IMG/VR virus record: IMGVR_UViG_2585427795_000009 | Span: 1 to 37,639 of that record | Strand: one strand, 5' to 3' | Source of the DNA: a virus | Lineage: Duplodnaviria; Heunggongvirae; Uroviricota; Caudoviricetes | DNA: 37,639 nucleotides | Shown here: one piece after another, positions 3,099 to 29,546 of the stretch | Position numbering within the stretch: position 1 is the stretch's first letter | Layout: the number at the start of each line of letters is the position of its first letter | The notes under the pieces: generated by a model | What the model was told of the DNA's origin: nothing | Databases searched by the model: none | Seen by the model: only the letters and a program-made list of their open reading frames with translations | Program-made: the position numbers and the translations under genes

Positions 3099-3577
3099 TA
3101 TCCCGCCCCCGTCATACCCGTGAATCTGGTCGCCATACTGCCAGCCTTACCGATGAGCGATTCTGCCTGTTTACCGATATCGCCATAAAGCGCGGCCAGT
3201 GACTCATCAACGCGGGTGAGCGACAGCGTAAAATCAATTTTCCGTGGTGTGCCGTCTGCAAAGAAAATACTCCCTGTTTCACTCACCCTGCCGATGACAT
3301 ACATGCCGTAAATCATGCCGGTGCCATCCAGCAACGGCCACGCCCGGCCTTCCTCTGCCATCAGTGTGAGCGTGGTCATCGTCAGCTTGCCGCCGGTCAG
3401 TTCGGGATAAAGCACACCGGCAAGCGTGATGTTTTCCTCACCCACACCGAGAAACTGAAAGGCATCCCGTTTACCGATACGGGAATTTGACGGCCAGCGA
3501 TAATCTGATTCACGCTGCATGGTCTGGTGTGGCAGCGTCTGGCGCATAAAAACAAACATACCTAACGCGAGCATCAT
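3098..3577 (-). CDS. U: Tail protein gpU
   Basis: 159 aa, synteny T-U-D. Confidence 0.85.
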   Translation of the reverse strand: MMLALGMFVFMRQTLPHQTMQRESDYRWPSNSRIGKRDAFQFLGVGEENITLAGVLYPELTGGKLTMTTLTLMAEEGRAWPLLDGTGMIYGMYVIGRVSETGSIFFADGTPRKIDFTLSLTRVDESLAALYGDIGKQAESLIGKAGSMATRFTGMTGAG

Positions 3578-3591
3578 TTTTCGTCACCTCC

Positions 3592-6039
3592 TTAACCGTC
3601 ATGCATCATGCTGGCACGGGCGCGCGCACGTTTATCCCGTTCGTATTTTTCGAGCGCATCCTGTAACTGGCGGTCGAGCTGTGTCCCCGGCGCAGTACCA
3701 CCCGTCAGGCTGATGTGATATTCGTTTTTACTCTGGTCCACATAAGAGCGGCCAGCCGGTGCCGTGACCGGCTGATAAGCCTGATAACCTGCATAAGAGC
3801 TGGTCGCCAGAATATAACCACCGCTGCCATACGTGGCGGCTTGAGTTCTGGCGGCGGTCTGGTCAAGTGTGTCTGACTCTTTGTTGATAACACCGAGTTT
3901 TTCCAGTACCCAGTCAATACCACTGCGCAGTTTGTTGAACGCATTAAGCGGCAGCATCAGCGCGTCAGCCAGTGCCTGCCCGAACATGACGCCCGTGTCA
4001 CGGCAACGGTTCAGGGTGTCCTGGGTGGCTTTGACCGGGGCAATCAGGTTTTTAAACCACTGCCACGCGGCCTGTAACTTTTCACCCAGCCAGTCAAACA
4101 CCGGTTTAAGTGGCGTGAACAGTTCCCCCACCGGCGCAAATGCCGCTTTCAGCCCTTCCACCACACCGCCAAAGAATGCGCTGACAGGCTCCCAGTATTT
4201 ACGGATAAGCAACGCCCCGGCGACAATGGCGGCCACCACGGCCACAACCGGCCAGCTAATCGCCCCGATGGCGGTTATAACAGCACTGCCAACCGTCGTG
4301 AAGATTGCCCCCATTGCGCCTGCTGCCGCGATGATGGCATTGATGCCGGTGATAACCGGCCAGGCTACGAGGCCAATGGCACCTATGACACCAATCAGTG
4401 CCAGTGCACCACCGACAATGATGCCGATGGTTGACGCCAGTGATTTGTTTTTCTGGATCCAGCCGTCGAGTTTTAACACATACTTTGTGGCCGTCTGCGT
4501 GAGATTACGCAGTGCGCCTTCCTGCTGGTCAAACAGGTCAGTCCCCACCGCCTCATAAGCGGACTGAAACTCCTTAAAGTCACCGCCGAGGTTGTCCTGC
4601 ATGATATTTACCAGCTCTGCGGTCTTCCCGTCTGAGGCTTTAAACGCAGCGGTCAGTTTGTCCAGCTTTCCGGTTGAGGCGGCAGTCATCAGCACAGCGG
4701 CGGCTGAGCTGGCCTCCTCCCCGAAAATGGTTTTCATGTATTCAGCCTGCTGGGCAGTACCGAGCCGGTTTTTCTCAAAACTGGCCTGCATTTCTTTCAG
4801 AATGGTAAATATTGGCCGGGTGTTTCCCTTGCTGTCTGAGGTTTTCACTCCAAGCTCTTTGAGTGCATCCCATGCTTTTCCCGTCGGTGCCTGCAGGCGG
4901 CTTAACACGGCACGGCTTCCCGTCCCCGCCATTGAGCCTGTGATTTTTGCATCATGCAGCGCCCCGACCATTGCGGCGGTTTCTTCAATGCTGACACCGG
5001 CATTTTTTGCCACAGGTGCGGCATAGGTCAGCGCATCGCTCATGCCGTCAAAATCGGCGGCGGTTTTGTTCATCGTCATGGAGAGAACATCCCCGATATG
5101 AGCGACCTTATCGTTTGAAAGCTGAAAGGCGGATTTCATCCCCATCAGCAGGGCGGCGTTTTCTTCCATCGTGCGGCGGTTCGCCAGCGCCATATTCAGC
5201 GTGACCGGCGTTGCCGCCTGAATGGCATCAACATCCCCACCCGCTTTCGCGATGATTATCTGTGCACCGGCCGCATCATCCGCCGAAGCGGCGGTATTGT
5301 CGCCGAGCTGGCGCGCCTGTTTGCGTAGTGCGGTCATTTCGGCGGAGTCTTTTGCCACTCCGAGCACGGCCTGCAATTCTGAGTTTTTCTGCGCAAACTC
5401 ATAACCGGGCATCAGCAACTTAACTCCGGCCATCGTTCCCGCCGCCGCAATCCCCACACCGGCAGCGCCTACTGAGGCCATATTTCCGGCCAGCTCCTTT
5501 CCGGCCTGATAACGCTGTTTGACTGCGTTAAGTTTTGCCTGTTGCGCACTGACACGCGCCAGCGCGTCACGCTGCCGGTTAAGCTGCGCGGTGGTTTCAC
5601 TGATACGGTTTTTCAGCCCCTGCTCATCATGTGCAAGATTGCGGGTATTAATTCCCACAGCAGCCAGTTCCCGCTGCTGGCGTTTAACGGAATCCGTCAG
5701 GCGGTTATATTTCGCCTGTAAGTCCTCCGCTGCTCGCTTTGCGGATTCCAGCACTTTCGCCTGAGCACGGGTCGGACGCTCGGTGTTTTTAAACTGTGTG
5801 GCAAGGGCTTCGGCCTCCTGCCGTGCCTTTTCAAGTGCATGACCAGTCACGGCGAGCTGTGCACTGGTCTTGTGGAATCCCTCAATACGGGATGCCTGAC
5901 CGTTCAGCTCGCGCAGTGATTTTTGTGTTTCCCGGATATCACCCGACAGCGACCTGCTCGCTGTACGGATGGATTTAAACGGGCGGGATGCCTGGTCAAC
6001 AGCCCTGAGCAATACCTGTAATTTTACATTGTCACTCAT
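3592..6039 (-). CDS. T: Tail tape measure protein gpT
   Basis: 815 aa, coiled-coil N-terminal half, hydrophobic Gly/Ala-rich central segment; follows E/E'. Confidence 0.9.
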   Translation of the reverse strand: MSDNVKLQVLLRAVDQASRPFKSIRTASRSLSGDIRETQKSLRELNGQASRIEGFHKTSAQLAVTGHALEKARQEAEALATQFKNTERPTRAQAKVLESAKRAAEDLQAKYNRLTDSVKRQQRELAAVGINTRNLAHDEQGLKNRISETTAQLNRQRDALARVSAQQAKLNAVKQRYQAGKELAGNMASVGAAGVGIAAAGTMAGVKLLMPGYEFAQKNSELQAVLGVAKDSAEMTALRKQARQLGDNTAASADDAAGAQIIIAKAGGDVDAIQAATPVTLNMALANRRTMEENAALLMGMKSAFQLSNDKVAHIGDVLSMTMNKTAADFDGMSDALTYAAPVAKNAGVSIEETAAMVGALHDAKITGSMAGTGSRAVLSRLQAPTGKAWDALKELGVKTSDSKGNTRPIFTILKEMQASFEKNRLGTAQQAEYMKTIFGEEASSAAAVLMTAASTGKLDKLTAAFKASDGKTAELVNIMQDNLGGDFKEFQSAYEAVGTDLFDQQEGALRNLTQTATKYVLKLDGWIQKNKSLASTIGIIVGGALALIGVIGAIGLVAWPVITGINAIIAAAGAMGAIFTTVGSAVITAIGAISWPVVAVVAAIVAGALLIRKYWEPVSAFFGGVVEGLKAAFAPVGELFTPLKPVFDWLGEKLQAAWQWFKNLIAPVKATQDTLNRCRDTGVMFGQALADALMLPLNAFNKLRSGIDWVLEKLGVINKESDTLDQTAARTQAATYGSGGYILATSSYAGYQAYQPVTAPAGRSYVDQSKNEYHISLTGGTAPGTQLDRQLQDALEKYERDKRARARASMMHDG

Positions 6040-6515: not shown

Positions 6516-7034
6516 TCACAGGCCGATATTGCGGCGGTGTTGCTCCAGCCGGTCGACGCCGTTCACCTTCTCAATCATGTTAATGGTGTCGATTTCGACC
6601 AGCTCCTTACCGTCCATCGTCAGCCGGAAATAGGTGCAGACCACGGAGATTTTCGACTCGGTGTCTTCTCCCTGTTTACCCTCGCCGGTGTCGATTTCTT
6701 TCTGACGGCCACGCATGACCACCTCGACGGCCACCGTTTCGCCGGTATCGTCGCGCTGGTAAGAGCCAGCAAAACGAATCGGTACGGCATCCACACCGGT
6801 TGCGGCGTAAAGCTCCCAGATAACCGAATCCGGGAAGCCCCCGAGCGACCACTCCATTGACAGCGCATCGTCATCAAGGCCGAGGTCTACCGGTGCGCTG
6901 CCGTTCATCCCCGCACCGCGATAGTTTTCGAGCTTACGGGTCAGTTTTGGCAGCGTGACGGACTTTGCAACGCCCTGATAGCTGTAGCCGTTCAGAAAGA
7001 CGTTCATTAACTTGAGTTTGCGCGGCATTGCCAT
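6516..7034 (-). CDS. FII: Tail tube protein gpFII
   Basis: 172 aa, synteny downstream of FI. Confidence 0.88.
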   Translation of the reverse strand: MAMPRKLKLMNVFLNGYSYQGVAKSVTLPKLTRKLENYRGAGMNGSAPVDLGLDDDALSMEWSLGGFPDSVIWELYAATGVDAVPIRFAGSYQRDDTGETVAVEVVMRGRQKEIDTGEGKQGEDTESKISVVCTYFRLTMDGKELVEIDTINMIEKVNGVDRLEQHRRNIGL

Positions 7035-7046
7035 CGGTCAGGCTCC

Positions 7047-8237
7047 TTAATTGCTGTTAACCGAGGTGACCAGATTTGCCAGGTATTTATCGGTAATACG
7101 CTGGCGCAGGGTCAGGTTTTCGAGAGGAGGCACCGGTGTATAGTCGTAGTCGATATACAGTTTTCCGGCCTTGAGGGTTTCCGCATCGTTGGATTCTTCG
7201 CTGAACCAGCATGAGCCATCCACGATATAGCCGTTTGTTTTCAGCTCACGGAATTTGGCATTGATGCCGTCAACGATGTCGCGAATCAGCGTTGCGGTGA
7301 TGGGCTTGTCCACCGCCCACATGTGCGCCTCAGCCATCGTGTCGGCCAGCACCTGCGCGGTGCGGGTGTAGTTTTCAAAGAGGAACAGCGGGTCATCAGA
7401 GCAGGTACGGTTACCCCAGAAGCGGAAACCGTCACGGCGAATCAGCGTTGTGACACCTGACTCATTCAACAGGTCAGCATCGGTGCCGGACTCCTGCAAA
7501 TCCCAGAATACAGAGGCACTGATGCCGGTAACACCGTTTACCCCGACGTTGGACAGCGTTTTATGCCAGCCCTGCTCCTGGTCGATTCTGGCACGCAGAC
7601 CCAGCGCACGGGCGGTGGCATACGCGGTGGCGGTGGTACTGGTGACCGTATCCCATGCGAGGAAATCCGGCCAGATAACCATCAGTTCACGCTGGCTGAA
7701 ATTCTGGCGGTAGGCTTTCACCTCGGAAATGGTTTTACAGCCCCATGCGCTGATATACCCGAAAGCGCGCAGCTTCTGACAGACTGATGCCAGTGCAACA
7801 GCCACCTCTTTGGTGTCCAGTCCCGGCACGCCGAGAATACGCGGTTTAACACCAGTTACCGACTCCGCCGCCAGCAGGGCTTTCAGTCCGGTGTACTGAC
7901 CGTTTTCGTCGGTGGTGCCGATGATATTGGAAACGGTCTGCGCGAGTTTCGTTTCCTCGTCGTCGCCGGTGCCGTCTTCCACACGCACAACAACGGTGAC
8001 CGGTTTTGACTGGTCGGCGATAGCCTGCAACGACGCCGCCAGCGTGCCTTTTTTACCGGCCTTTGCAATTGCACTCTGCACATTGGTAATCAGCACCGGT
8101 TTATTGAGGGGGAAGATTTCCGCATCCGCATCGCTGGCCGTGCAGACCATGCCAACAATGGCGGTGGATACGGTGGAAATGACGCGGGTGCCGTCGTTAA
8201 TCTCCAGCACCTGCACGCCGTGATGATAGTCACTCAT
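7047..8237 (-). CDS. FI: Contractile tail sheath protein gpFI
   Basis: 396 aa, synteny, size. Confidence 0.9.
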   Translation of the reverse strand: MSDYHHGVQVLEINDGTRVISTVSTAIVGMVCTASDADAEIFPLNKPVLITNVQSAIAKAGKKGTLAASLQAIADQSKPVTVVVRVEDGTGDDEETKLAQTVSNIIGTTDENGQYTGLKALLAAESVTGVKPRILGVPGLDTKEVAVALASVCQKLRAFGYISAWGCKTISEVKAYRQNFSQRELMVIWPDFLAWDTVTSTTATAYATARALGLRARIDQEQGWHKTLSNVGVNGVTGISASVFWDLQESGTDADLLNESGVTTLIRRDGFRFWGNRTCSDDPLFLFENYTRTAQVLADTMAEAHMWAVDKPITATLIRDIVDGINAKFRELKTNGYIVDGSCWFSEESNDAETLKAGKLYIDYDYTPVPPLENLTLRQRITDKYLANLVTSVNSN

Positions 8238-8566
8238 CCGTTTAACTCCGTGGTTAATGGGTGCAACTATTTTCTGTTGGGCAGTGCATGAGACGCTATT
8301 TGACCTGGCTGGTCAGTGGATGAAACAACAGATAAAGAAAAGGCAGGCAATTCGCCCGCCTGTCCTGATTTGTACTCACTCATTTTCCGACTGACAATTT
8401 ACATAGCCAAAACGCTATCAAATCTGACAGTCTGCTTTGAACAAGAAGCGGACATTTGCCTGTCAGGGTATATGCCGCTCTGCGGTTATTATCCAGAATC
8501 AATAATTCATCTGAGTTGGATTACATATAAAACATAGTTACCCCATGAATAACCATTAGCAGATTA

Positions 8567-9160
8567 TCAATTATGTAAATCTTTTGTTTTATGTTCTTTA
8601 GCGTATTGTGACAACAAATGGCTATAGCGTTTAAGCAAAATATTAGAAAGATTAAGCTCATTCATGAAGTGTTCTTCTAATAAGTAACCATCAATATCAA
8701 CTTTAATATCATTACCACTTTTCATCTTCTGTAACGTAGATTTTACACGCTCCAGCAGGATGCTTTGCTCATGGTAATAGTCCATAAGAAGAGTAACATC
8801 CTCTTTATCAAGCTTACTTAATTCGCTGAAGTAGGATTTAAACACTTTATCAGTCTGGTTTAATGCAATCTGTAAGCGAGGCCCCCCTAATGATTTGACA
8901 TTAATGGCAAAAGGCTCGCCAACAAAATGCTCCGAATTTTCGTCAAAGCCAATATGTCTCGTTTTATCAAGAAAAGTGAGAGCGCGATGGTTATTAGCGA
9001 TTTCATATGCAAACATTGTTCTGATACTGTCCCTCTCAGCCTCCATGCTTATATCATCACGATGATTTGTATAAAATATATTTCCAACAAAGAGAACCAT
9101 AGCAAGAATCACTGAACTTGCCTCCCAGTTAATATTTTTTAATCGTCGCTTAGTAAACAT
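8567..9160 (-). CDS. Hypothetical membrane-anchored protein, AT-rich cargo gene in the Z/fun slot
   Basis: 197-aa ORF with ATG start and AAGGTG SD 6 nt upstream; one N-terminal hydrophobic helix (SSVILAMVLFVGNIFY); clearly lower GC than flanking G and FI; no recognisable motifs. Confidence 0.6.
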   Translation of the reverse strand: MFTKRRLKNINWEASSVILAMVLFVGNIFYTNHRDDISMEAERDSIRTMFAYEIANNHRALTFLDKTRHIGFDENSEHFVGEPFAINVKSLGGPRLQIALNQTDKVFKSYFSELSKLDKEDVTLLMDYYHEQSILLERVKSTLQKMKSGNDIKVDIDGYLLEEHFMNELNLSNILLKRYSHLLSQYAKEHKTKDLHN

Positions 9161-9381
9161 ACCGCACCTTAATTATCAAAAATATTCCTTCAGTGTTATC
9201 TGGTTAGCCTAAACCAAGTCATTAAAGTCCGCAGGATATCATATACATAAAATGTATTGTTTAGAATTTGCACTAATAAAATAATGCTTTACTAAAATCT
9301 ACTCCAGACACAGAGCGGCCTGTCAGATTAGGCTTTACTCTGTGCCATAGATATGTAATCTCACACCAGAGCTTATACAAC

Positions 9382-9909
9382 TTATTGCGGCATTTCCGGC
9401 CATTCAGGATTTGCAGGATCCACACGGCTGACCAGAACGCTGTAGCGTTCCCATGCTTCCAGTCGGCTGCGTTCCTCATCTGTTGCCATATTCAGCCTGA
9501 CAGCGCGCTCCAGCGGCACAATCACGGATTCTGCTTCGGAAAGCAAAGTTGCCTTTTGTGATTCTGCCAGTTGCTGCTGTTCGTCTGCCGTATAAATCCG
9601 CTTAATCACGGCACCATCCTTAAACATCCATTTACCTGAGTCATCAGCACGTCGGTTGGCAGTAATATCAGGAACCTCGACAACGCTAAAACCTTCAGGG
9701 TTAAGCGTTGAAGCATCTCGGGTGATGCCGACAATTATATTATTCTCGTCGTAAACAATCTTTATCGTCTCTTCCTGAAAATTACTTACTTCCTCATACC
9801 AGTTTTTTCCCTCTTCGGACCATAACCAGATAACATCAAAATTTTTTGTCAGTTGATATTGGGCAACAGTTTTTGGATTACCCGCAGTAATATTTTTTAA
9901 ATGCTGCAT
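9382..9909 (-). CDS. G: Tail fibre assembly protein gpG (Tfa family)
   Basis: 175 aa; Tfa-like C-terminal region ([30 protein letters not shown]); immediately downstream of H; N-terminal half AT-rich. Confidence 0.85.
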
Positions 9910-9912
9910 AAA

Positions 9913-12135
9913 TTACACCTGTGCGACGTTATACCATGTGCCATTGATGTATTTTTGTATTGGTCTGAATACTGCGGGGTCATCACCATCGACTTCACCG
10001 ACAATACCAAGCCCTGTAATTACGTGCCCTGCTTTCTCATACATCACTCCTTTCTGCATGGTCTGAACAACACGAGTGCCCAGGCGAATATCCCGGACAT
10101 AGCGAGAATCTGATTCAGCTTTGGTGTATGCACCAACATCTCCCGCTGATGGTTTTCGTGTTGTGGTATAGAAATCAGACCAGCCAGATTCAAAACCATA
10201 ACCATCACGGGCTGACCTGTAAGATATACCGCCATTTTTATAATTCACACGAAACTGTACAGCCGGGCAGCTACCAGCATTTATATTAAAGTGAAGAATT
10301 AATGCAGATGCTCCCCCAATCAGAGCGTTGTATGCGCCACTGTCCCAATTCCATCCCACGGCTGTATCACCATTAACCGTATTACCTGTCTGCCGAAGTG
10401 CAAATGCACCGACATTTCTGGCATTAAGGGTAATATCTCCAGAACCATCAAAGGCAACACCTGCTATTTTCCTCGGTGTTTCGAGTTTTGAGGCTGTTGC
10501 AGCATTTCCTGAAAGGTTGGAAATAAATGGATGTGAGCAGTAATAACCGCGCCCATTTTTAAAATCCAGAATAGCCTGTGCGTTCGTGCTTTCTGTAGCG
10601 GGATTAGTTGCCCCCCACTTATATGTCGTTTTACCGACGACATAATCCTCTGTCGGAACAATAACCGTTAGCCCTTCCTCTGCAAGAATTTGCACAGGGA
10701 AAGCTCTGGCTTCAACATAAAAAACACTACATACATCATCATCTTTCAGGCTTGTAACAATGGAATGGATTGAACGCTCATTGGTCTGATACGTCCAGAA
10801 ATAACCTGCCGCATATGAACCACGATCGGTCCAGCCTCCGGGCATAACCATGCCATTAAACTCGCAGTTATTCATTACATAATCGCCGTTATAACAACCA
10901 GTTGAAATAACGACGCGGGATGCCATTTCTCCTGAAAGGCTGGCAGCACGGCGAAAGATAACGGGATACCACTTCCCGGCAACGACATTTGCAGGGGCGG
11001 CAAACGAATACTTTCGCATTCCCTTTTTCTTATCCACTTCACCTTTGCTGTAAACATTAATGTTACTCAGGAAGCGTCCTTTATCAGGAATATCCGCACC
11101 GTTCTGATCTTTCTGGAGACGTTTTTCAGCATTGTCATAGGCAGACTTCACCGCTTTTGGTGTTGCAGCCAGCGTTTCAGAATCACTGTTGGTGGCGCTA
11201 CTGAGCTGGACAAGACCTTTTCGCGCTGTGGTGGCATCCTGTGCAGTGTATTTCCCGTTAGCAAGGTCATACGCTGTCTTAACCGCCTTTGGCGTTGCCG
11301 CAAGCGTTTCAGAATCGCTGTTGGTGGCGCTACTGAGCTGGACAAGGCCTTTTCGCGCGGTGGTGGCGTCCTGTGCAGTGTATTTCCCGTTAGCAAGGTC
11401 ATATGCTGCTTTTACCGCTTTTGGTGTTGCGGCGAGCGTTTCAGACGTGCTGTTGGTGGCACTACTGAGCTGGACAAGGCCTTTTCGCGCTGTGGTGGCG
11501 TCCTGTGCAGTGTATTTCCCGTTAGCAAGGTCATATGCTGCTTTTACCGCTTTTGGTGTTGCGGCGAGTGTTTCAGACGTGCTGTTGGTCGCACTGCTTA
11601 ACTGAGTAAAACCTTTGGCGGTCAGCGAGGCGTCCGGGTGACGTCGTGACTGTTCATGTTCTGCAATTTTGTCATCAACGTAATCCTGCGTTGCCATCAC
11701 CGTTGTGGTGTCAATGGTCAGCGCCACTGAGGCCACACTGCTGACGATGATGACCATGCGGCAGGTCTGCGAACGCCCTGAGCCTTCGGCAAGAGCTGGC
11801 TTATAACTTTCAGCCATGTTCGCCACGGCAATTAACGTTCCAGCATCATCGTACAGGCCAAGCTCACGCATCCAGAAACCGCCCACCTCCGGCGGAATAA
11901 CCAGCTCTGCGATAATATAATTACTGTTTCGTTTGTCCTGGCTGATTTTGTTCAGCGCATGTCGCCAGACTTCGTGGATAAGCCCGGTCTGTCCGGCATC
12001 CGGGACAGGCAATTTACCACCGCCATCCCCGACGGCCATCGTGGTAATGTTGACCTTCCGCCCTCCCGGTGCGGTTGCCGCTGCCAGCTTTGCTGCACCG
12101 GCAGTGGTGATAACGGTTTTGAATTTTGTGCTCAT
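9913..12135 (-). CDS. H: Tail fibre protein gpH with four tandem 40-aa fibre repeats
   Basis: 740 aa; N-terminal MSTKFKTVITTAGAAKLAAATAPGG typical of P2 H; internal repeats KGLVQLSSATNS(T/D)SETLAATPKAVKAAYDLANGKYTAQDATTAR x4. Confidence 0.88.
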   Translation of the reverse strand: MSTKFKTVITTAGAAKLAAATAPGGRKVNITTMAVGDGGGKLPVPDAGQTGLIHEVWRHALNKISQDKRNSNYIIAELVIPPEVGGFWMRELGLYDDAGTLIAVANMAESYKPALAEGSGRSQTCRMVIIVSSVASVALTIDTTTVMATQDYVDDKIAEHEQSRRHPDASLTAKGFTQLSSATNSTSETLAATPKAVKAAYDLANGKYTAQDATTARKGLVQLSSATNSTSETLAATPKAVKAAYDLANGKYTAQDATTARKGLVQLSSATNSDSETLAATPKAVKTAYDLANGKYTAQDATTARKGLVQLSSATNSDSETLAATPKAVKSAYDNAEKRLQKDQNGADIPDKGRFLSNINVYSKGEVDKKKGMRKYSFAAPANVVAGKWYPVIFRRAASLSGEMASRVVISTGCYNGDYVMNNCEFNGMVMPGGWTDRGSYAAGYFWTYQTNERSIHSIVTSLKDDDVCSVFYVEARAFPVQILAEEGLTVIVPTEDYVVGKTTYKWGATNPATESTNAQAILDFKNGRGYYCSHPFISNLSGNAATASKLETPRKIAGVAFDGSGDITLNARNVGAFALRQTGNTVNGDTAVGWNWDSGAYNALIGGASALILHFNINAGSCPAVQFRVNYKNGGISYRSARDGYGFESGWSDFYTTTRKPSAGDVGAYTKAESDSRYVRDIRLGTRVVQTMQKGVMYEKAGHVITGLGIVGEVDGDDPAVFRPIQKYINGTWYNVAQV
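11110..11640. repeat. About 4.3 tandem copies of a 120-bp unit inside H (coding fibre repeats)
   Basis: Near-identical 120-bp units visible directly in the DNA; they give identical peptides in three frames of the ORF track. Confidence 0.85.
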
Positions 12136-13929: not shown

Positions 13930-14561
13930 AGAGGGCTCCCGGTTGTGCCGCCGCTGTCGCCGGGGTGTTTATGGGTATGCAGTACCTTACCGTTTGATGA
14001 GAGTTCACCGCCGGTGTGTTCAATGTTGCCGCGCATCGTCCCGCCCTTCTGCACTTCCAGCGTGCCGGTAGTCAGTTTGTTAGTGCAGACCACTTCTGGT
14101 GTGTCCAGGGTGACACGGGTTGACGCTTTCACCGTGACCACCGGTACCGTGGCAGTAACAGAATCAGAAGCCGTCACGCTGGCCGTTTTAATTCCGCTTA
14201 CCGTGAGTGCACTGGTTTCGGGTTCATACTCAATCACCGCCCCGTCAGGGAAACGGATATGCAGGGCATCAGCCGACGCAGACGGCGCAGGGTTATCGCC
14301 GGAATAAATCCCCGGCAGAACGAACGCCGTGTCGAGTTCACCGCCCACGGCCAGAATCAGCACCTGTTCCCCCACGGAAGGTGCCCACCATGTGCGCGAA
14401 CGTCCTGCGCGATGGGTCAGCCACTGAAGCCAGTCGGTGCACATGCCGCCGGTCTGCACGCGGCAGCGACCGGCGTTAAGGTCGGTTTCGACGATAATGC
14501 CGGTGCGAATCATGTTGCGCAGTGCGCGCGCGAGTTCCTGAATATTTGCGAGAGTGTTCAT
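13926..14561 (-). CDS. V: Baseplate spike protein gpV
   Basis: 211 aa from ATG at 14561 (MNTLANIQELARAL...); the ORF track start at 14579 is a TTG extension. Confidence 0.88.
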   Translation of the reverse strand: MNTLANIQELARALRNMIRTGIIVETDLNAGRCRVQTGGMCTDWLQWLTHRAGRSRTWWAPSVGEQVLILAVGGELDTAFVLPGIYSGDNPAPSASADALHIRFPDGAVIEYEPETSALTVSGIKTASVTASDSVTATVPVVTVKASTRVTLDTPEVVCTNKLTTGTLEVQKGGTMRGNIEHTGGELSSNGKVLHTHKHPGDSGGTTGSPL

Positions 14562-14644
14562 GCATGTGAGATTGCACAATATATAAAAGTTATGCTATCT
14601 GGATTCATTTGTAGAACTACCAGACAACATTCAAGGAGAGCGTA

Positions 14645-15430
14645 ATGGTCAGCTATAATGTGACTAATGTGTGGGAGCTAATCGTTTTTTTCCTTTGTAG
14701 CTTTGCAGTATTAGCATTTTTTAGCTTTGGTAAAAGTAACCTTATGAGGCTTATTGCACATTATTTCAATTTTGGATATTCAGACAAAAAATTAAAAAGA
14801 CTTGACCGCGAGTGGCGCGACATTCAACTATTTAAAATAATTAACGGAATCAATGTATCAGGCATTGAAAATGTGAGAATGATACAGCAGGGACTGATTG
14901 ATGGAAAACTAAAAACATCGTATTTTTTCCTTACTCGCATCTGGGGTGACATAACAAAGCCACCACACATAATTAAAACAATAATTGTAATTCTGGCCAG
15001 TATTTTTTACATTCTTCTCGCATGTTACATACACAACGAACAATCCGTTATAGTAAGGGATGCCATAGGCATACCATATAAAAACATGATGTACTATGTT
15101 TATAGTGACAAAGTTCTTTTATCCTTCAAAAATAAAGCAGTTGAATTTAATAAAACTTATAGCCTTGCCGATTGCAAGAGACTGCAAAACGTATTTATAA
15201 AAGACACACTTCCTGAGATCGCCTGCAATAAGCTCTTACAGCTAAACGAGGAGGACTCCGAATGGTTAAGTCAGGAGATTAAAGATAATAACAGTCACAA
15301 AAAAGCATTATTAATACTATCCCTCGTCTATTTCACTTCAGGTCTGGTTATATTCCTGTCATATACAAAATTCTTTTACGCCAATAAGAAGGTTTTAGAA
15401 TACAAAGCATCAAATAAAAATCACTCATAA
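14645..15430 (+). CDS. Hypothetical multi-pass membrane protein, AT-rich cargo gene in the orf30 slot between S and V
   Basis: 261-aa ORF with strong SD (AAGGAGAGCGTAATG); opposite strand to the late operon; three hydrophobic helices (LIVFFLCSFAVLAFFSF, IIKTIIVILASIFYILLACYI, ALLILSLVYFTSGLVIFLSY); much lower GC than neighbours. Confidence 0.65.
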   Translation: MVSYNVTNVWELIVFFLCSFAVLAFFSFGKSNLMRLIAHYFNFGYSDKKLKRLDREWRDIQLFKIINGINVSGIENVRMIQQGLIDGKLKTSYFFLTRIWGDITKPPHIIKTIIVILASIFYILLACYIHNEQSVIVRDAIGIPYKNMMYYVYSDKVLLSFKNKAVEFNKTYSLADCKRLQNVFIKDTLPEIACNKLLQLNEEDSEWLSQEIKDNNSHKKALLILSLVYFTSGLVIFLSYTKFFYANKKVLEYKASNKNHS

Positions 15431-15501
15431 ACCTCTAAACATTGAGCGACCAGCATGGCCGCTCAATGTTTAATTGCGCATCAGCCTCTGCCTGGATAAA
15501 A

Positions 15502-15954
15502 CTAACGCTCAAGGTGAGCCAGGATAATCTCTTCAATCATCTGCACATCCTCACAGGTAAAGCCGAGCAGAGGACGCGCCGGATAATCAATTTTCTTACC
15601 GTCTTTCCGGGTTTCTTCCGACAGACCGAACTGATGCACACTGGCGATTTTCGGCGACTTCCCGCCGTAAAATTCCATTGATGCCTGTTCCGGGCTGGCG
15701 CGGATATGCAAAAAACGACTGGTGATAAGTTTCGCAAACATTTTTCGCTTAACACGACCGGTCTTTTTTCTGGCGCGCTGCTGCTGGCGTGGCGCGTAGG
15801 GTGTGCCGTCCGGGGCTTTCTGTGCCATCACCCGGCGCTGCTGACTCTGCCGCAGACGTTTCGCCAGTTCGGTGCTCAGTCGCCGACGCCCTGACGGTGA
15901 CAGTGATTCAATCAGTCCGGTCAGACGGTCTTCAAAACGCTTAAACTCATTCAT
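15502..15954 (-). CDS. S: Tail completion protein gpS
   Basis: 150 aa, synteny. Confidence 0.85.
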   Translation of the reverse strand: MNEFKRFEDRLTGLIESLSPSGRRRLSTELAKRLRQSQQRRVMAQKAPDGTPYAPRQQQRARKKTGRVKRKMFAKLITSRFLHIRASPEQASMEFYGGKSPKIASVHQFGLSEETRKDGKKIDYPARPLLGFTCEDVQMIEEIILAHLER

Positions 15955-16414
15955 CCCACTTGCTCACCAGTTCACCATTGATATAAAGCTCCATCGGGCG
16001 GGTGACCGGCTCCGGCGGCGGAGGTTCCGGGATATTTTTCACATGCAGTGCGCCGCCAACCTCACTGACCAGCGTGCGCTCGGTCAGCATCAGGCTGATG
16101 CTGATATCAAAGCTGCTGTCATTGTTGATGTCCGCATAAAACGTGAAGCCCTTTTTCTGGCCTTCGTCGGTGGTCATGATGTCGGGCTGATTTTCCCGCA
16201 GCCACGCCAGCACCGGCACGATGAGCAGGTCAAAATCACCGGTAAAGTCGGTCACAATCACATTGAGCGTGTAACGCTTTTCGAACGACAGCGACGCCGC
16301 CAGCGTGGAGGCAATACTCCCGTTATCCACGAATATCCGCAGCATATCGGGGTTAGTTTTCAGCACCGTGACGGCATCAGTCAGCGCCCTGCGCAGGCTG
16401 TCGGGTTTGAGCAT
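15947..16414 (-). CDS. R: Tail completion protein gpR
   Basis: 155 aa, synteny. Confidence 0.85.
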   Translation of the reverse strand: MLKPDSLRRALTDAVTVLKTNPDMLRIFVDNGSIASTLAASLSFEKRYTLNVIVTDFTGDFDLLIVPVLAWLRENQPDIMTTDEGQKKGFTFYADINNDSSFDISISLMLTERTLVSEVGGALHVKNIPEPPPPEPVTRPMELYINGELVSKWDE

Positions 16415-24729: not shown

Positions 24730-26271
24730 ATGCCAACAGTTCCAATTTCTATGAGAAAACTTAAAGAAATTCTTAGGCTTAAATACGGTGTTGGACTCAG
24801 CCATCGACAAATTGGTCGTAGTCTTGCAATCTCCCCTTCCGTTGTATCCAGATATGCTAATCGGGCGGCTCAACTTGGCATAAAGCAGTGGCCCTTACCT
24901 ACAGGATGGGATGATACAAAACTAAAACATGCGTTCCTTCAGACCCAGGTTAAGATGAAGAAGCACTCTCTGCCTGACTGGGCTACAGTACACCGGGAAC
25001 TGCGTAATAAATGCGTGACGCTGCAGCTACTCTGGGAAGAATACTGTGAGCGTAATCCAGGCGGTTTTTACAGCTATAACCATTACTGCCGGATGTACCG
25101 TGAATGGCTCAAAACCACTTCACCATCAATGCGTCAGGTACATAAAGCTGGCGAAAAACTTTTCGTTGATTACTGTGGACCTACCGTTGGCGTTACCGAC
25201 CCTGAGACCGGAGAAATAAGAACTGCTCAGGTCATCGTAGCTGTTCTCGGGGCATCAAGTTACACATGGGCAGAGGCCACCTGGTCTCAGCAGCTTGAAG
25301 ACTGGGTGATGAGTCATGTTCGCTGCTTCCAGTGGTTGGGTGGCGTTCCTGAACTTGTTGTTCCGGACAATCTGAAAAGCGCCACATCCAGGGCATGTAA
25401 GTATGATCCTGACGTTAACCCTACCTACCAGCAGATGCTTGAGCATTATAATGTCGCAGTTTTGCCTGCGCGGCCACGTAAACCGAAAGATAAAGCCAAA
25501 GCTGAAGTTGGCGTTCAGGTTGTTGAACGCTGGATCATGGCCCGAATCAGGCATGAGATCTTCTACAGCCTTGCATCGCTTAATCAGCGCATTCGGGAGT
25601 TGCTGGAAAGACTGAATAACAAAATAATGCAGAAGTTGGGTTATTCACGTGCAGAACTCTTCATCCAGCTTGATAAACCCGCACTGAAGCCTCTTCCTGA
25701 AGCCAGTTACAGTTACACCCTGGTGAAGAAAGTCAGAGTTCATGCCGATTACCACGTGGAAATCGACAAACATTACTACTCGGTTCCATGTTCGCTGTTA
25801 GGCCAGCAACTGGAAGCATGGATCTCCGGAGAACTGGTAAGACTCTTCAATCAGGGGCAGGAGGTTGCTGTGCACCCGCGCAAGCGTACTTATGGCTACA
25901 GTACCCGCAACGAGCACATGCCTGAAGCTCATCGACAGCATGCCACCTGGACGCCAGAGCGTCTTCTGGAATGGGCGGGGCACATAGGCAGTGAAACTCA
26001 TAGTTATGTGCTTCATATACTGAACTCTCGTCCACATCCGGAACAAAGCTATCGCTTCTGCCTTGGACTCCTGAACCTTCATAAAAAATACAGTAAAGCC
26101 AGACTTAATGCAGCATGTGCAAGAGCTCTGAAAACAAAGGTATGGCGTCTGTCAGGTATTAAATCGATCCTGGAAAAAGGTCTGGATAAACAACCTGTTC
26201 AGGATCCAAAACCAGATCTGTTATCCACGATGGAACACGAAAACGTACGCGGCAGTGAGTATTACCACTGA
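24730..26271 (+). CDS. istA: IS21-family transposase IstA
   Basis: 513 aa; N-terminal HTH (LSHRQIGRSLAISPSVVSRY), DDE-type core, SD AAAGGA upstream. Confidence 0.9.
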   Translation: MPTVPISMRKLKEILRLKYGVGLSHRQIGRSLAISPSVVSRYANRAAQLGIKQWPLPTGWDDTKLKHAFLQTQVKMKKHSLPDWATVHRELRNKCVTLQLLWEEYCERNPGGFYSYNHYCRMYREWLKTTSPSMRQVHKAGEKLFVDYCGPTVGVTDPETGEIRTAQVIVAVLGASSYTWAEATWSQQLEDWVMSHVRCFQWLGGVPELVVPDNLKSATSRACKYDPDVNPTYQQMLEHYNVAVLPARPRKPKDKAKAEVGVQVVERWIMARIRHEIFYSLASLNQRIRELLERLNNKIMQKLGYSRAELFIQLDKPALKPLPEASYSYTLVKKVRVHADYHVEIDKHYYSVPCSLLGQQLEAWISGELVRLFNQGQEVAVHPRKRTYGYSTRNEHMPEAHRQHATWTPERLLEWAGHIGSETHSYVLHILNSRPHPEQSYRFCLGLLNLHKKYSKARLNAACARALKTKVWRLSGIKSILEKGLDKQPVQDPKPDLLSTMEHENVRGSEYYH

Positions 26272-26282
26272 TACGGGATCCA

Positions 26283-27032
26283 ATGATGAATCATCTTTAC
26301 GAACAACTGACCGCACTTAAACTCACCGGCTTCCGTGATGCGCTTAAAAAGCAACTTGCTCAGCCGGGCACATACCAGGAGCTGGGCTTCGAAGAACGCC
26401 TGTCATTACTGACAGCAGAAGAACTAACCTGCCGTGAAAACAGGAAGGCAGAGCGTCTGATCAAACATGCACGGTTCAGACTTAATGCTGAGTTATCAAA
26501 GCTGGATTATCGTAACAATAGAGGGCTGGACAGGGCCCTCATCCGTTCACTCAGTCAGGGAAACTGGTTAACCCTGAAACAAAATATTTTACTGACCGGG
26601 GCCACCGGCAGCGGTAAAACGTTCCTGGCATGTGCACTTGGTCATAATGCCTGCCGACAGGGATACAAGGTCTACTATTATCGCCTTAAAGCGCTGATGG
26701 AACAGTGCTATCAGGGGCATGCTGATGGAAGATACAGCAAACTTTTGACCAGGCTGAATAATAGCGATCTGCTGCTTCTGGATGACTGGGGGCTGGAACC
26801 TCTCTCATCAGAACAGCGTAGCGACCTGCTGGAAATAGTGGATCTGATGTACCAACGAGGCTCAATCATCGTAGTGAGCCAGTTGCCGGTGGAAAACTGG
26901 TACAAAATGATCGGAGACTCCACACATGCGGATGCCATCCTAGATCGACTGGTTCATGGCAGTATCAAGATCGAACTTAAAGGAGAATCAATGCGGAAAA
27001 TACAATCTCCGTTGACCGAAGGAGATCAGTGA
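26283..27032 (+). CDS. istB: IS21-family ATP-binding helper IstB
   Basis: 249 aa; Walker A (LLTGATGSGKTF) and Walker B (LLLLDDWG); AAA+ IstB pattern. Confidence 0.9.
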   Translation: MMNHLYEQLTALKLTGFRDALKKQLAQPGTYQELGFEERLSLLTAEELTCRENRKAERLIKHARFRLNAELSKLDYRNNRGLDRALIRSLSQGNWLTLKQNILLTGATGSGKTFLACALGHNACRQGYKVYYYRLKALMEQCYQGHADGRYSKLLTRLNNSDLLLLDDWGLEPLSSEQRSDLLEIVDLMYQRGSIIVVSQLPVENWYKMIGDSTHADAILDRLVHGSIKIELKGESMRKIQSPLTEGDQ

Positions 27033-27118
27033 AGGTAATTTAAAAACGGTTCTGTGAAAGTGACACGAACCGATCTCCATCGATGTTACTCACCGATCTC
27101 CTTCACGGTAATACGCAA

Positions 27119-27826
27119 CTATATATACTTCCTTTTTACTCTACTTAATTCTATCACTGATGAGGAGTGACAAAATGACAAATTAATAGTATCGATATAA
27201 TCCAAAATTTGACTCTCAACCTCAATAAAAATATTTTTGGGCCCATTACTAATCGATATACCGATTTCATCCAAAACAGCCATCATTTTTCTCTGATGAG
27301 TTTTATATTTATAGTCTTTATTTTCCTCTGTAATATGTGCATTGGCTTCCTCAATAACACATTTGATTCTAGATATTATTTCTAGATAATCTCTCGAAAC
27401 AGATATATCACCGCCTTGCGCTTCAGGGAACATAACCCTATACCATCTAAAAAAATTAACTTTCTCTGGATAGATGCTACTTCTTTTAGTTAACTCAGCA
27501 CTTGCAAATTCTCTAAACATCGTCAGATGACTAGTGTAATTACTATTATTATTATTTTTAACTCCAGCGTTATATGTCATCAAAGCAATCATAACACCAA
27601 AAACGGTAACAAAAGTTGTTATAAGCCATCCAAACGCCTGAAAATACATTACTATACCAGATGTTTTTTCCGCAAAAAATTTTAAGCACTGGCTATCGAA
27701 GCATATATCACGCTCATATAGCTTTTCATTCTGAATAGTTTCAAAAAGAGAAATTAGCGAAAAAATCAAAAAAAGAGCTGACGACACACCGACAATATAT
27801 TTGAGAAGTCTAATATTTGCATTCAT
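27119..27826 (-). CDS. 2-TM membrane protein, candidate effector translationally coupled to the upstream reverse transcriptase
   Basis: 235 aa; two N-terminal TM helices (LLKYIVGVSSALFLIFSLISLF and GIVMYFQAFGWLITTFVTVFGVMIALM) then a roughly 150-aa soluble domain; its ATG overlaps the RT stop (ATGA); AT-rich. Confidence 0.7.
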   Translation of the reverse strand: MNANIRLLKYIVGVSSALFLIFSLISLFETIQNEKLYERDICFDSQCLKFFAEKTSGIVMYFQAFGWLITTFVTVFGVMIALMTYNAGVKNNNNSNYTSHLTMFREFASAELTKRSSIYPEKVNFFRWYRVMFPEAQGGDISVSRDYLEIISRIKCVIEEANAHITEENKDYKYKTHQRKMMAVLDEIGISISNGPKNIFIEVESQILDYIDTINLSFCHSSSVIELSRVKRKYI

Positions 27827-29049
27827 AATGGTTTTAAAGATGCCAATCTAGATTTAAAACACTCCAGTTTTTCTTTAAATGATTCAGAGCGAGTAAGAAT
27901 AATCATCTTATATCTCGTCAAATCATATTTTCTTTTATACCAATGTTTATTTTGATTACCTTTCGAATACGACAACTCTAAACTTTTTATAGCTGCATCA
28001 ATCACAGCAACATCTCTTTTAGATGGCATCGGTTTTATTGCCTGCAACTGTTTCTTGAATGATTCATATTTTTCATGCCCAACACGGCCAAGCTTATTCA
28101 CTCTCCCCATACATCTATTGAATTCTTTTCTGTATGCAACACTTGTTTTTGTGTTATTTTTTGCCGCCAGTAATTTCAAATTATGTATAGATGCCCTGAT
28201 TCTTTTGACTTCATCGGATGGTAGTCGAGGTGAGTCATAGTCAACTCTTAAACCATGTACTTTTATAGGTTCAGATGAACAGTGAAATATTTTAGTTTTG
28301 TGCTTATTTATCGGCAAGTCATGCTCAGAAAGCATCCTCTCTATATGGCTTTGCATTTGAGAAAAATCATAATTACTTATTTTAGATGACACGGTAATAT
28401 CATCTACCAAACGCGTATAAACAAGTCCTTTCCTCTGCGCACGTCTTACCACATCCCCTTCAACAGCGAATAAACACAAAGTTGCTATATAGCTTGATGT
28501 TAAGGCCCCCTGTACGACAAAATCATCCTTAGTACATATATCCACCAAGTATTCAAGAGCCTCATCCTTAATATGCAATATCTCCTCAAACACGCTCCTA
28601 ACCAGATCTCTATGGATATTATCGAAAAAATTACTTATATCCACCTTGAGAACTGTTTTTGCTCCACAATGAGCCTTTGCACATGAAACATAGTCACGTT
28701 TGACATTAGAATTTAAAACATCATTTTTACTGGGAACTGAACCAAACAAAAATGAAGGAAAAACAACCAATTCCTTAAAGATACGTTTATTAATTCTACT
28801 CTGTAATAATCTCATTTTAGGATGCAGGGAGTAGACAATCCGTTTGCTTCCGTCAATTTTGGGAATTTCTTTTAGAGTATATTTCTCATCTAATGGTAAT
28901 TCTGCAATAGCTTTAAGCTCTTCAACAGAAATCGATAAAGCCTTTGACAACTTTTCAAGTGTTGTGATAGGAGCATTGGATTTGCTGTATGGTTTAAATT
29001 TATCCATAAACATACCATTCAAATTCAAAGTTACGTACGGTCTTCCCAT
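27823..29049 (-). CDS. Retron-type reverse transcriptase (start uncertain: ATG at 29049, 29013 or 29007)
   Basis: RT motifs read directly: KRIVYSLHPKMRLLQSRI (motif 1-2), CAKAH-x5-VLKVDISNFFDNI (NAxxH-like plus motif A), QGALTSSYIATL (motif B), YTRLVDDITVS (motif C, YxDD), LPINKHKTKIF (motif E), IKVHGL in the position of the retron VTG motif; about 130-aa C-terminal extension. Confidence 0.82.
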   Translation of the reverse strand: MGRPYVTLNLNGMFMDKFKPYSKSNAPITTLEKLSKALSISVEELKAIAELPLDEKYTLKEIPKIDGSKRIVYSLHPKMRLLQSRINKRIFKELVVFPSFLFGSVPSKNDVLNSNVKRDYVSCAKAHCGAKTVLKVDISNFFDNIHRDLVRSVFEEILHIKDEALEYLVDICTKDDFVVQGALTSSYIATLCLFAVEGDVVRRAQRKGLVYTRLVDDITVSSKISNYDFSQMQSHIERMLSEHDLPINKHKTKIFHCSSEPIKVHGLRVDYDSPRLPSDEVKRIRASIHNLKLLAAKNNTKTSVAYRKEFNRCMGRVNKLGRVGHEKYESFKKQLQAIKPMPSKRDVAVIDAAIKSLELSYSKGNQNKHWYKRKYDLTRYKMIILTRSESFKEKLECFKSRLASLKPL

Positions 29050-29265
29050 ACTCAAGGGTGGAACAGCAGAGATGCTTACATCAACAATTGTCAGCAACAG
29101 CCTCTGCTATCTTTCGACCGTACGTAATGTCGTCGGCTACGGCACCATCGTAGTTGACGACGGTGGGGCCTCGCTGATAGGTCCATAGTGGACGCTTTTT
29201 TGTAAAAGCAAAAACTGACAATTTAATGTTGTTGACTGCCGCATACCAAGCGAATCGCTGGTGCG
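29050..29265 (-). ncRNA. Candidate structured leader or ncRNA upstream of the retron-type RT (possible msr-msd-like element)
   Basis: Non-coding leader with several perfect hairpins (GTCCA-TAG-TGGAC 29181..29193; GCTTTT-N4-AAAAGC 29194..29209; CACCATCG-N7-CGACGGTG 29143..29165) and two interleaved long-range inverted repeats (29031..29040 with 29118..29127, 10 bp; 29081..29094 with 29215..29236). Sequence-only inference. Confidence 0.3.
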
Positions 29266-29271
29266 CTAAGA

Positions 29272-29300
29272 ATAATGCAACAAAAAAATAAGAATTTCAA
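29272..29300 (-). promoter_or_regulatory. Putative sigma-70 promoter for the RT/2-TM operon
   Basis: On the minus strand: TTGAAA (-35), 17-nt spacer, CATTAT (-10); about 215-250 nt upstream of the RT start. Confidence 0.3.
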
Positions 29301-29338
29301 CCGGGTAACTGCAAGCCAGCGACATCGTTTAGCGCGCA

Positions 29339-29357
29339 GTGCTTTCCCCGCCTCGCC
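29339..29357. other. cos site (19-nt cohesive-end sequence of P2/P4 type)
   Basis: Minus-strand sequence GGCGAGGCGGGGAAAGCAC matches the P2 cohesive end as I recall it; flanked at 29357..29380 by hairpin CCGCCC-N8-GGGCGG plus TTTT. Confidence 0.75.
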
Positions 29358-29546
29358 CGCCCGCTTAATGGGGCGGTTTTAATGCACTTGCATTATGTCC
29401 CGCTCCTCAGTGCTGCGCTCCATCCTGATTACAAAAACCGTTATCAAAAACACATGCAAATAGACGCAGTCAAATGCACTACCGCCTCTCGCAATACCTT
29501 CAATTTCATGATAAAAAACATCATCCCTAACAAGAGCATTATCCTC

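Follow-up and report, generated by a model that had tools for sequence, protein, structure and literature searches.

What does a P2-like prophage carry in the short slot between its tail fibre assembly gene G and its tail sheath gene FI, and what might that cargo do? We have addressed this question for the IMG/VR virus record IMGVR_UViG_2585427795_000009, the whole of which (37,639 nt) is termed the window here. The window comprises a complete P2-like prophage whose late genes lie on the minus strand, and the annotation of the collinear phage PhiR44_1 matches its gene order. Between G and FI it holds a single open reading frame (ORF) of 197 codons, designated ORF197. This is a real and conserved gene; it is mobile, it is independent of the allele of the tail fibre genes, and it is found in the company of defence genes. 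The reading that we tentatively favour, by analogy with gp15 of phage HK97, is that the cassette is an autonomous moron encoding a protein that may exclude other phages at the level of the cell envelope.

The slot is the known Z/fun hotspot; the late operon V-W-J-I-H-G ends on one side of it, and the pF promoter lies on the other. An earlier note, made from the sequence of the window, had equated it with the place where P2 carries the gene Z/fun. That position is right, as the P2 record (AF063097) has fun(Z) between G and FI; the minor correction is that fun(Z) is read from the strand opposite to the late genes, and ORF197 from their own strand. Homology among the window, P2, P2-EC31 and PhiR44_1 runs from the start of FI to about position 8456, and again from the stop of G down to about 9309. 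In terms of the 1144-bp interval between the two genes (8238–9381), phages with other cargo match only positions 1 to about 203–229 and about 1057–1072 to the end; one matching genome aligns over interval positions 1072–1144, which is the flank distal to G. Since such phages share the flanks alone, the cargo can be delimited to 8457–9308. P2-EC31 has a different ORF of 362 amino acids in the same slot, and further P2-like phages carry unrelated cargo between the same flanks. The AT-rich character that had been ascribed to a 1.1-kb island is correct (GC content 0.345), but its size is not, for the island is the 852 bp of the cassette. The GC profile falls from about 0.56 in FI to 0.32–0.40 over 8300–9350, against 0.50 for the window as a whole and 0.35 within ORF197, and the GC content at third codon positions (GC3) is 0.33 in ORF197 compared with 0.675 in FI. 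All the homologues examined are AT-rich (GC 0.31–0.37), irrespective of the host.

Is ORF197 a gene? Stop codons make up about 7% of codons at the local composition, and by our own arithmetic an open frame of 197 codons would arise by chance about 5e-7 times per start, so the frame reported in the earlier note is not a chance one. The good Shine–Dalgarno (SD) sequence mentioned there is also present, and its GG core is invariant across five aligned cassettes, four of them homologous ones from other genera. Full-length homologues of equal length occur in Escherichia, Pantoea, Salmonella, Kosakonia, Pluralibacter and Enterobacter. The ratio of non-synonymous to synonymous substitution (dN/dS) between genera is about 0.06–0.15, with synonymous sites near saturation. 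Thus the ORF197 family is under purifying selection, and ORF197 is a functional protein-coding gene. Within the close family 45 columns are invariant, including N11, W12, E13, A14, S16, V17, A20, M21 and F24 of the hydrophobic helix described below, while in the family as a whole there is no variation at R47, N57 and L117 and next to none at E53, I54 and Y129.

These data bear directly on whether the cassette might be decaying or functionless passenger DNA. Alleles that are one G shorter in the G6 run coding for Gly92-Gly93 (P0068 and P0070) encode a product of 99 amino acids ending in SLGGLAYRLH, and are found on at least 40 contigs, as might be expected of a gene that is being lost by a –1 slip. 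The run is peculiar to the E. coli allele; it is absent from the Pantoea, Salmonella and Kosakonia alleles, and it stands within a gene that is otherwise 35% GC. It could be a slippage-prone on/off site, or the short alleles could be homopolymer sequencing artefacts. The gene is intact in all 28 of the viral loci that cover it, selection on it is strong, and its length and motifs are kept across genera. We therefore regard functionless DNA as scarcely credible.

The protein belongs to a family that has no characterised member. The profile and structure searches that the earlier note had suggested as a check give a match between ORF197 and phrog_3829 of the PHROGs database (E = 7.1e-137, residues 1–197 on positions 1–197 of a profile of 197), a family of unknown function. 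No Pfam family is found, in keeping with the claim that the protein has no recognisable motifs, and no model of PADLOC-DB v2.0.0 (0 families at E ≤ 1), which covers the PD-T4, PD-T7, PD-Lambda and PDC candidates; a distant relative (P0044) likewise gives 0 PADLOC families. An NCBIfam match to a radical-SAM epimerase is noise (13.9 bits, the cut-off being 300), 24 family members scanned against Pfam give scattered single matches at E > 0.002, a sequence profile search of the PDB gives one match that is not meaningful (E = 0.09), and BFVD contains no relative. A word-indexed search of 5.8 billion proteins finds 38 relatives, none less than 53% identical and none from outside the Enterobacterales, and a profile search of 1.84 billion cluster representatives returns only 28 matches. 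The distant matches are 19–38% identical, and have the same size and layout as ORF197. A literature search, incomplete in its coverage, found no paper naming or testing the protein. The NCBI name for ORF197 is ‘lysogenic conversion protein’, and its exact sequence is on at least 386 public contigs; that name is an inherited label, and neither it nor the PHROG label carries a tested function.

How widely is the cassette distributed? Of 5426 complete E. coli genomes, 201 (about 3.7%) contain the 1144-bp interval, always on the chromosome. Matches to at least some part of it are found in 1017 E. coli genomes; the roughly 800 beyond these 201 match partially, mostly in the conserved flanks. Among 70 matching phage records the cargo is found in 13, all sequenced Peduovirus-type phages. 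In IMG/VR the order G-ORF197-FI is seen in 28 of 30 loci. Outside P2-like phages, a homologue lies directly after the primase gene of P4-like satellites on four occasions, in Pantoea ananatis, two Kosakonia species and a metagenomic virus. Others are found where a lambdoid prophage of Salmonella ends, in a small AlpA island of Pantoea, on an IncFII plasmid, inside a conjugative transfer region among tra genes and in integrase-bearing islands. The patchy presence, the unrelated cargo elsewhere and the low-GC homologous cassettes in other elements and genera together show that the cassette has been acquired horizontally, as the earlier note had supposed in calling it a moron. The term denotes an accessory element that forms a unit of its own within the genome of a phage (Juhala 2000 and Cumby 2012, in the summary given by PMC3594210). 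Three of its hallmarks are seen here: the cargo is present or absent at the same site in closely related phages (P2 and P2-EC31 carry other cargo), its composition is unlike that of its neighbours, and a terminator stands on the strand of the gene, albeit one borne by the flank.

The cassette also moves independently of the genes beside it. Across the IMG/VR loci, identity to the window is 98–100% for FI and 94–100% for ORF197 but only 74–99% for G, and H is highly variable. ORF197 of the window is 100% identical to that of locus L019, whose G is only 77% identical; for G and H it is L044 that matches the window, at 99% identity, and the ORF197 of this locus is 94% identical. P22H4 and 9W have the G and H closest to those of the window, yet lack the cargo. 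Thus the prophage is a recombinant around the slot, and the cassette reassorts without regard to the receptor-binding module, which speaks against any role bound up with the receptor of the phage itself; masking of that receptor is rejected on account of the uncoupling from the G and H alleles together with the presence of the gene in elements that have no tail.

From where would ORF197 be transcribed? The AT-rich 5′ region of the cassette probably holds a promoter of its own, as the blocks that it shares with the Pantoea cassettes (Table 1) indirectly suggest; activity of such a promoter in the repressed prophage would be a further hallmark of a moron. The sole sigma-70-like match, ATAACA-16-GATAAT at 9199–9172, is weak; we reject it as the promoter, as its –10 hexamer ends 11 nt from the ATG and the conserved SD sequence would be lost from the transcript. 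In the P4-like contexts a canonical intrinsic terminator stands between the primase gene and the cassette (L010, 5406–5429; L004, 5236–5258), so there the cassette would have to bring its own promoter. In the window, read-through from the late V operon into ORF197 is likely too, because the RNA hairpin just downstream of G, although kept in P2 and P2-EC31, has no proper U-tract and was not reported by the terminator scan, and is probably not an efficient terminator. Beyond the gene, the intrinsic terminator in the conserved flank would be expected to stop any late-strand transcript that crosses the slot; it is on the strand of ORF197 but is part of the flank and not of the cassette.

This arrangement is what would be expected if ORF197 were a lytic-cycle accessory, expressed as the last gene of the V operon and serving late masking of a receptor or entry site so as to spare the progeny, as T5 Llp does, or the tuning of lysis. 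ORF197 shares the strand of the late genes, the hairpin beyond G has no U-tract, and the first good terminator downstream is that at 8341–8361. But most P2-like phages lack the gene, it is uncoupled from the tail fibre allele, and it is also found in satellites, plasmids and islands that have no late operon, where terminators insulate it. We consider such a lytic role improbable.

The cassette is bracketed by an inverted repeat, the left arm of which (AATCTGACAGGCCGCTCTG) is complementary to the right (AATCTGACAGTCTGCTTTG) at 16 of 19 positions. The local-alignment score of the arms is 23, compared with 15.1 ± 2.1 in shuffled sequences, and the 19-nt repeat is found at equivalent positions in P2-EC31 and PhiR44_1. 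The depositors of AJ512677 annotate a ‘left inverted repeat’ and a ‘Right inverted repeat’ at the slot, features of 91–113 nt; a search of the window for longer repeats of that kind detects the 19-nt core alone. Allowing a single mismatch, the slot motif AATCTGACAGNCNGCTNTG (19 nt) also turns up in an unrelated conjugative element, itself the carrier of a distant homologue. That locus has a further copy, with three mismatches, which lies 21 nt past the stop of the homologue, and an IS110-family transposase lies between the two copies. Copies of the motif are at 5675–5693 and 9690–9708 of L016 and at 6723–6741 of L006; by our own rough estimate about 0.01–0.02 matches with no more than one mismatch would be expected over all the loci fetched. 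A diverged copy of the right-arm motif follows the cassette of a Pantoea sp. These occurrences hint that the 19-nt motif may serve as a site of recombination, either moving along with the cargo or drawing it in.

The sequence of ORF197 allows some prediction of where the protein would reside. The single N-terminal transmembrane (TM) helix that had been noted is borne out as one hydrophobic segment at residues ~12–31 (Kyte–Doolittle maximum of 1.54 for a 19-residue window), with no window above 1.2 elsewhere, and every family member has one such segment. By the positive-inside rule the more positive flank of a membrane helix stays in the cytoplasm. The net charge summed over 24 members is +46 for the 15 residues before the helix and –3 for the 15 residues after it, and on these sums and the rule ORF197 is predicted to be N-in, C-out (type II), with a cytoplasmic N-terminus and about 165 residues in the periplasm. 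Reading of the sequence, with no dedicated predictor, finds no small-residue cleavage motif after the helix. Since no such motif follows and the helix is itself conserved, the latter is probably an uncleaved signal anchor in the inner membrane. The protein contains no cysteine, and therefore no lipobox. An AlphaFold2 (AF2) model made with the family alignment is helical (predicted local distance difference test, pLDDT, 62.9; predicted template modelling score, pTM, 0.59), with helices at residues 36–67, 83–100, 104–114, 119–148 and 151–185; a model from the single sequence was unusable (pLDDT 45). The fold may tentatively be described, in generic terms, as an acidic periplasmic helical bundle of about 165 amino acids.

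The company that the gene keeps bears on its possible function. Counting neighbours within one or two genes, homologues are found beside LmuA/LmuB of the Lamassu system, beside a type II methylase and restriction enzyme in the lambdoid Salmonella prophage, adjoining VapC on the IncFII plasmid, and next to a 1524-amino-acid ATPase with a weakly LmuA-like N-terminus. A relative in Proteus mirabilis is beside a putAbiC protein, and a distant relative is placed downstream of a TIR protein, at a distance of 38 bp; this TIR protein matches the PADLOC candidate PDC-S66. The tail-gene slot of P2 is a recognised defence hotspot (bioRxiv 10.1101/2024.10.15.618418), the region of P4 between the primase gene and att is a minor one (PMC13586616), and hotspots of phages and phage satellites are dominated by defence genes (PMC9122126; PMC13586616). 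The neighbouring known defence genes thus lend circumstantial support to the idea of a role in defence, by exclusion or abortive infection, which the earlier note had called plausible but unproven.

The same distribution might be read in terms of a lysogenic conversion that is unrelated to phages, ORF197 being an envelope protein that alters the fitness of the host, for example by conferring tolerance of stress, aiding colonisation, protecting against a colicin or toxin, or acting in conjugative entry exclusion. Morons often encode traits other than defence (PMC3594210), the exact sequence of ORF197 occurs in a uropathogenic isolate, one relative is placed within tra genes and another in an island near Rhs toxins, and the NCBI name would fit. 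That name is an inherited one, however, and several independent neighbours are bona fide anti-phage systems; moreover the carriers are phages and satellites, the hotspots of which, as noted, are dominated by defence genes. On balance we think this unlikely.

Given a role in defence, ORF197 might act by abortive infection (Abi), a cue-triggered oligomerisation or opening of the membrane killing or arresting the cell, in the manner of the TM effectors of retrons, of the systems that signal against phages by way of cyclic oligonucleotides (CBASS) and of RexB. It is the product of a single gene with a membrane anchor, the TM helix is unusually conserved, defence systems are nearby, and the distant relative close to the TIR protein could be the partner of the latter. 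Yet the close family is always solitary, and the TIR neighbour matches a PADLOC candidate that acts as a single gene and needs no partner. There is just one TM helix, and the bulk of the protein is predicted to be in the periplasm, where infection cues in the cytoplasm cannot be sensed. An Abi effector is accordingly an unlikely explanation in our view.

The favoured reading, exclusion at the envelope, has precedents. HK97 gp15 is an inner-membrane exclusion protein encoded by a moron in the tail operon, and blocks the entry of DNA while leaving outer-membrane receptors untouched (PMC3594210). Like ORF197 as predicted, this YebO-like protein is a small inner-membrane protein with an N-terminal anchor whose gene is a moron among tail genes, and it is the best functional analogue for the mechanism that we propose. 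ORF197 is larger, with what is predicted to be a folded helical ectodomain, and shares no homology with gp15 that can be detected in PHROGs and Pfam scans, which return phrog_3829 alone. T4 Imm and Sp, P22 SieA, phi80 and N15 Cor, and T5 Llp are further phage-encoded entry blocks in the envelope that depend on a single gene (PMC11436027; PMC10883804). By sequence ORF197 is in none of the known superinfection exclusion (Sie) families, in that PHROGs give phrog_3829 alone and no Pfam match to 24 members is convincing, on searches that included no direct profile–profile test for each protein. Cor and Llp act on outer-membrane receptors, whereas ORF197 is predicted to be in the inner membrane; and Llp is a lipoprotein, which ORF197, lacking cysteine and lipobox, would not be. 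P2 fun(Z), responsible for T5 exclusion and sensitivity to fluorodeoxyuridine (FUdR), shares with ORF197 the slot between G and FI, the conserved flanks and the status of a non-essential AT-rich cargo, but Fun(Z) is a protein of 528 amino acids. Homology between the two is rejected (hhalign probability 0.09%, E = 0.58), as is homology to ORF1 of P2-EC31. The periplasmic four-helix-bundle sensor domains of chemoreceptors and histidine kinases, of the 4HB_MCP type, may be named as another known system close to ORF197.

We would envisage the following. A self-contained mobile cassette in the Z/fun hotspot, bracketed by a short conserved inverted repeat, would have ORF197 expressed in the prophage state and, probably as well, by read-through in the late part of the lytic cycle. 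The basic N-terminus would stay in the cytoplasm, the conserved helix would anchor the protein in the inner membrane, and the acidic bundle would face the periplasm. There, or at the inner membrane, it would hinder the machinery with which incoming phages deliver their genomes; alternatively the target could be a host membrane protein that incoming phages need. A more specific form of this reading is that the family is a new one of single-gene immunity proteins, each a signal-anchored periplasmic four-helix bundle, in which the TM helix and a face formed by R47, E53 and N57 bind tape-measure or ejection proteins, or a host inner-membrane channel, and so block the translocation of the genome. 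In that detail we regard it as doubtful.

Several points count against exclusion at the envelope. PADLOC, including its candidate families from enrichment in defence islands, has no place for the ORF197 family, and the neighbourhood evidence comprises about a dozen contexts. No convincing sigma-70 promoter can be assigned upstream of ORF197, while its position on the late strand, with no good terminator after G, would fit a role in the lytic cycle as well. The predicted topology depends on the positive-inside rule. The AF2 model is moderately confident, with a pLDDT below 50 for residues 1–35 and 77–103, and the matches of ORF197 to four-helix bundles are unspecific.

The features of the slot and its surroundings are collected in Table 1. 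A small ORF on the plus strand (8257–8394) overlaps the pF promoter and terminator region, and is recorded as a ‘hypothetical protein’ in some phage records (FIG00643520; 38 amino acids in PhiR44_1). As this stretch is regulatory DNA that is kept in P2, the call is in all likelihood spurious. The segment 9294–9378 has about 78% identity to a stretch at ~3500–3800, near the start of many lambdoid phages that convert to Stx1a or Stx2c, and thus the flank sequence reaches beyond P2-like phages. A scan of 8100–9500 against Rfam gives only a chance match to a snoRNA, so that the island contains no known RNA element.

Table 1. Features of the G–FI slot, the adjoining late genes and the main hotspot of the window
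Feature	Positions	Strand	Remarks
T	3592–6039	minus	late gene order T, E, FII, FI, ORF197, G, H
E	between T and FII	minus	
FII	6516–7034	minus	
FI, tail sheath	7047–8237	minus	ORF; annotation in PhiR44_1 and P2; downstream border of slot
Conserved region with pF promoter and terminator	8238–8456		kept among P2-like phages with other cargo
pF transcription start, F operon	8261–8263	minus	by homology with AF063097
pF activator (Ogr) binding region	8305–8332	minus	by homology, mapped from AF063097 annotation via alignment
Intrinsic terminator	8341–8361	minus	AGGCGGGCGAATTGCCTGCCT then TTTCTTT; terminator scan; kept in P2, P2-EC31, PhiR44_1
Right arm of inverted repeat	8421–8439	plus	AATCTGACAGTCTGCTTTG; in conserved flank
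Variable cargo cassette	8457–9308	minus	852 bp, GC 0.345; bounds from alignments with P2, P2-EC31, PhiR44_1
3′ untranslated part of cassette	8457–8566	minus	sequence and alignments
ORF197	8567–9160	minus	ATG; 197 amino acids, 23 kDa; family phrog_3829
G6 homopolymer	8882–8887	minus (coding strand)	codons Gly92-Gly93
5′ region of cassette	9161–9308	minus	AT-rich; blocks GATAT..., TAACCA common with Pantoea cassettes
SD sequence AAGGTG	9165–9170	minus	5–10 nt upstream of ATG; read from sequence
RNA hairpin just downstream of G	9307–9346	minus	10-bp outer stem; minimum free energy and centroid fold; kept in P2, P2-EC31
Conserved flank distal to G	9309–9381	minus	common to P2-like phages irrespective of cargo; alignment diverges past ~9310
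Left arm of inverted repeat	9311–9329	minus	AATCTGACAGGCCGCTCTG; 16/19 complementary to right arm
G, tail fibre assembly	9382–9909	minus	ORF; GpG in collinear PhiR44_1, also P2; upstream border of slot
H, tail fibre	9913–12135	minus	ORF, 740 amino acids
IS21-family (insertion sequence) element	IstA-like 24730–26271; IstB 26283–27032		main hotspot
Type IV retron	reverse transcriptase 27823–29097; effector with two TM helices 27119–27826	minus	main hotspot
AbiP2-type defence reverse transcriptase	29382–31094		main hotspot

The slot is not the sole accessory locus of the window. The main P2 hotspot, between the portal gene Q and the replication gene A (24730–31094, GC 0.32–0.41), is occupied by the insertion sequence, retron and AbiP2-type reverse transcriptase listed in Table 1. 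On the plus strand at 14645–15430, opposite to the late genes, an ORF of 261 amino acids lies in a low-GC patch among the tail genes (14000–16000, GC 0.45–0.49), the region where orf30 of P2 lies; it has no Pfam or PADLOC match, and may be another accessory cargo. The translation of H contains four tandem copies of a unit of ~44 amino acids at 11100–11650 (...KGLVQLSSATNS-SETLAATPKAVK-AYDLANGKYTAQDATTAR...), and there is a marked anomaly in AT-skew and GC-skew at 11150–11750; the H protein of P2 has 669 amino acids. A gene of the peptidase U32 family at 1–1362 on the plus strand is of the host chromosome, and marks the boundary of the prophage at the left end of the window.

Most of the cargo of the Z/fun slot in P2-like phages has never been tested, and the ORF197 cassette is among the commoner alleles. 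The hotspot, the moron concept and exclusion at the level of the envelope were known already; what is new is a family without a characterised member. ORF197 is less a surprise than a clearly defined and abundant candidate, a single gene that lends itself to easy testing. Should it exclude phages at the envelope, the few defences that block entry would be joined by a new protein family, there would be a bearing on the host range of phages used in therapy against E. coli, Salmonella, Pantoea and Proteus, and ORF197 would provide a simple one-gene system in which to study the passage of phage genomes across the periplasm and inner membrane.

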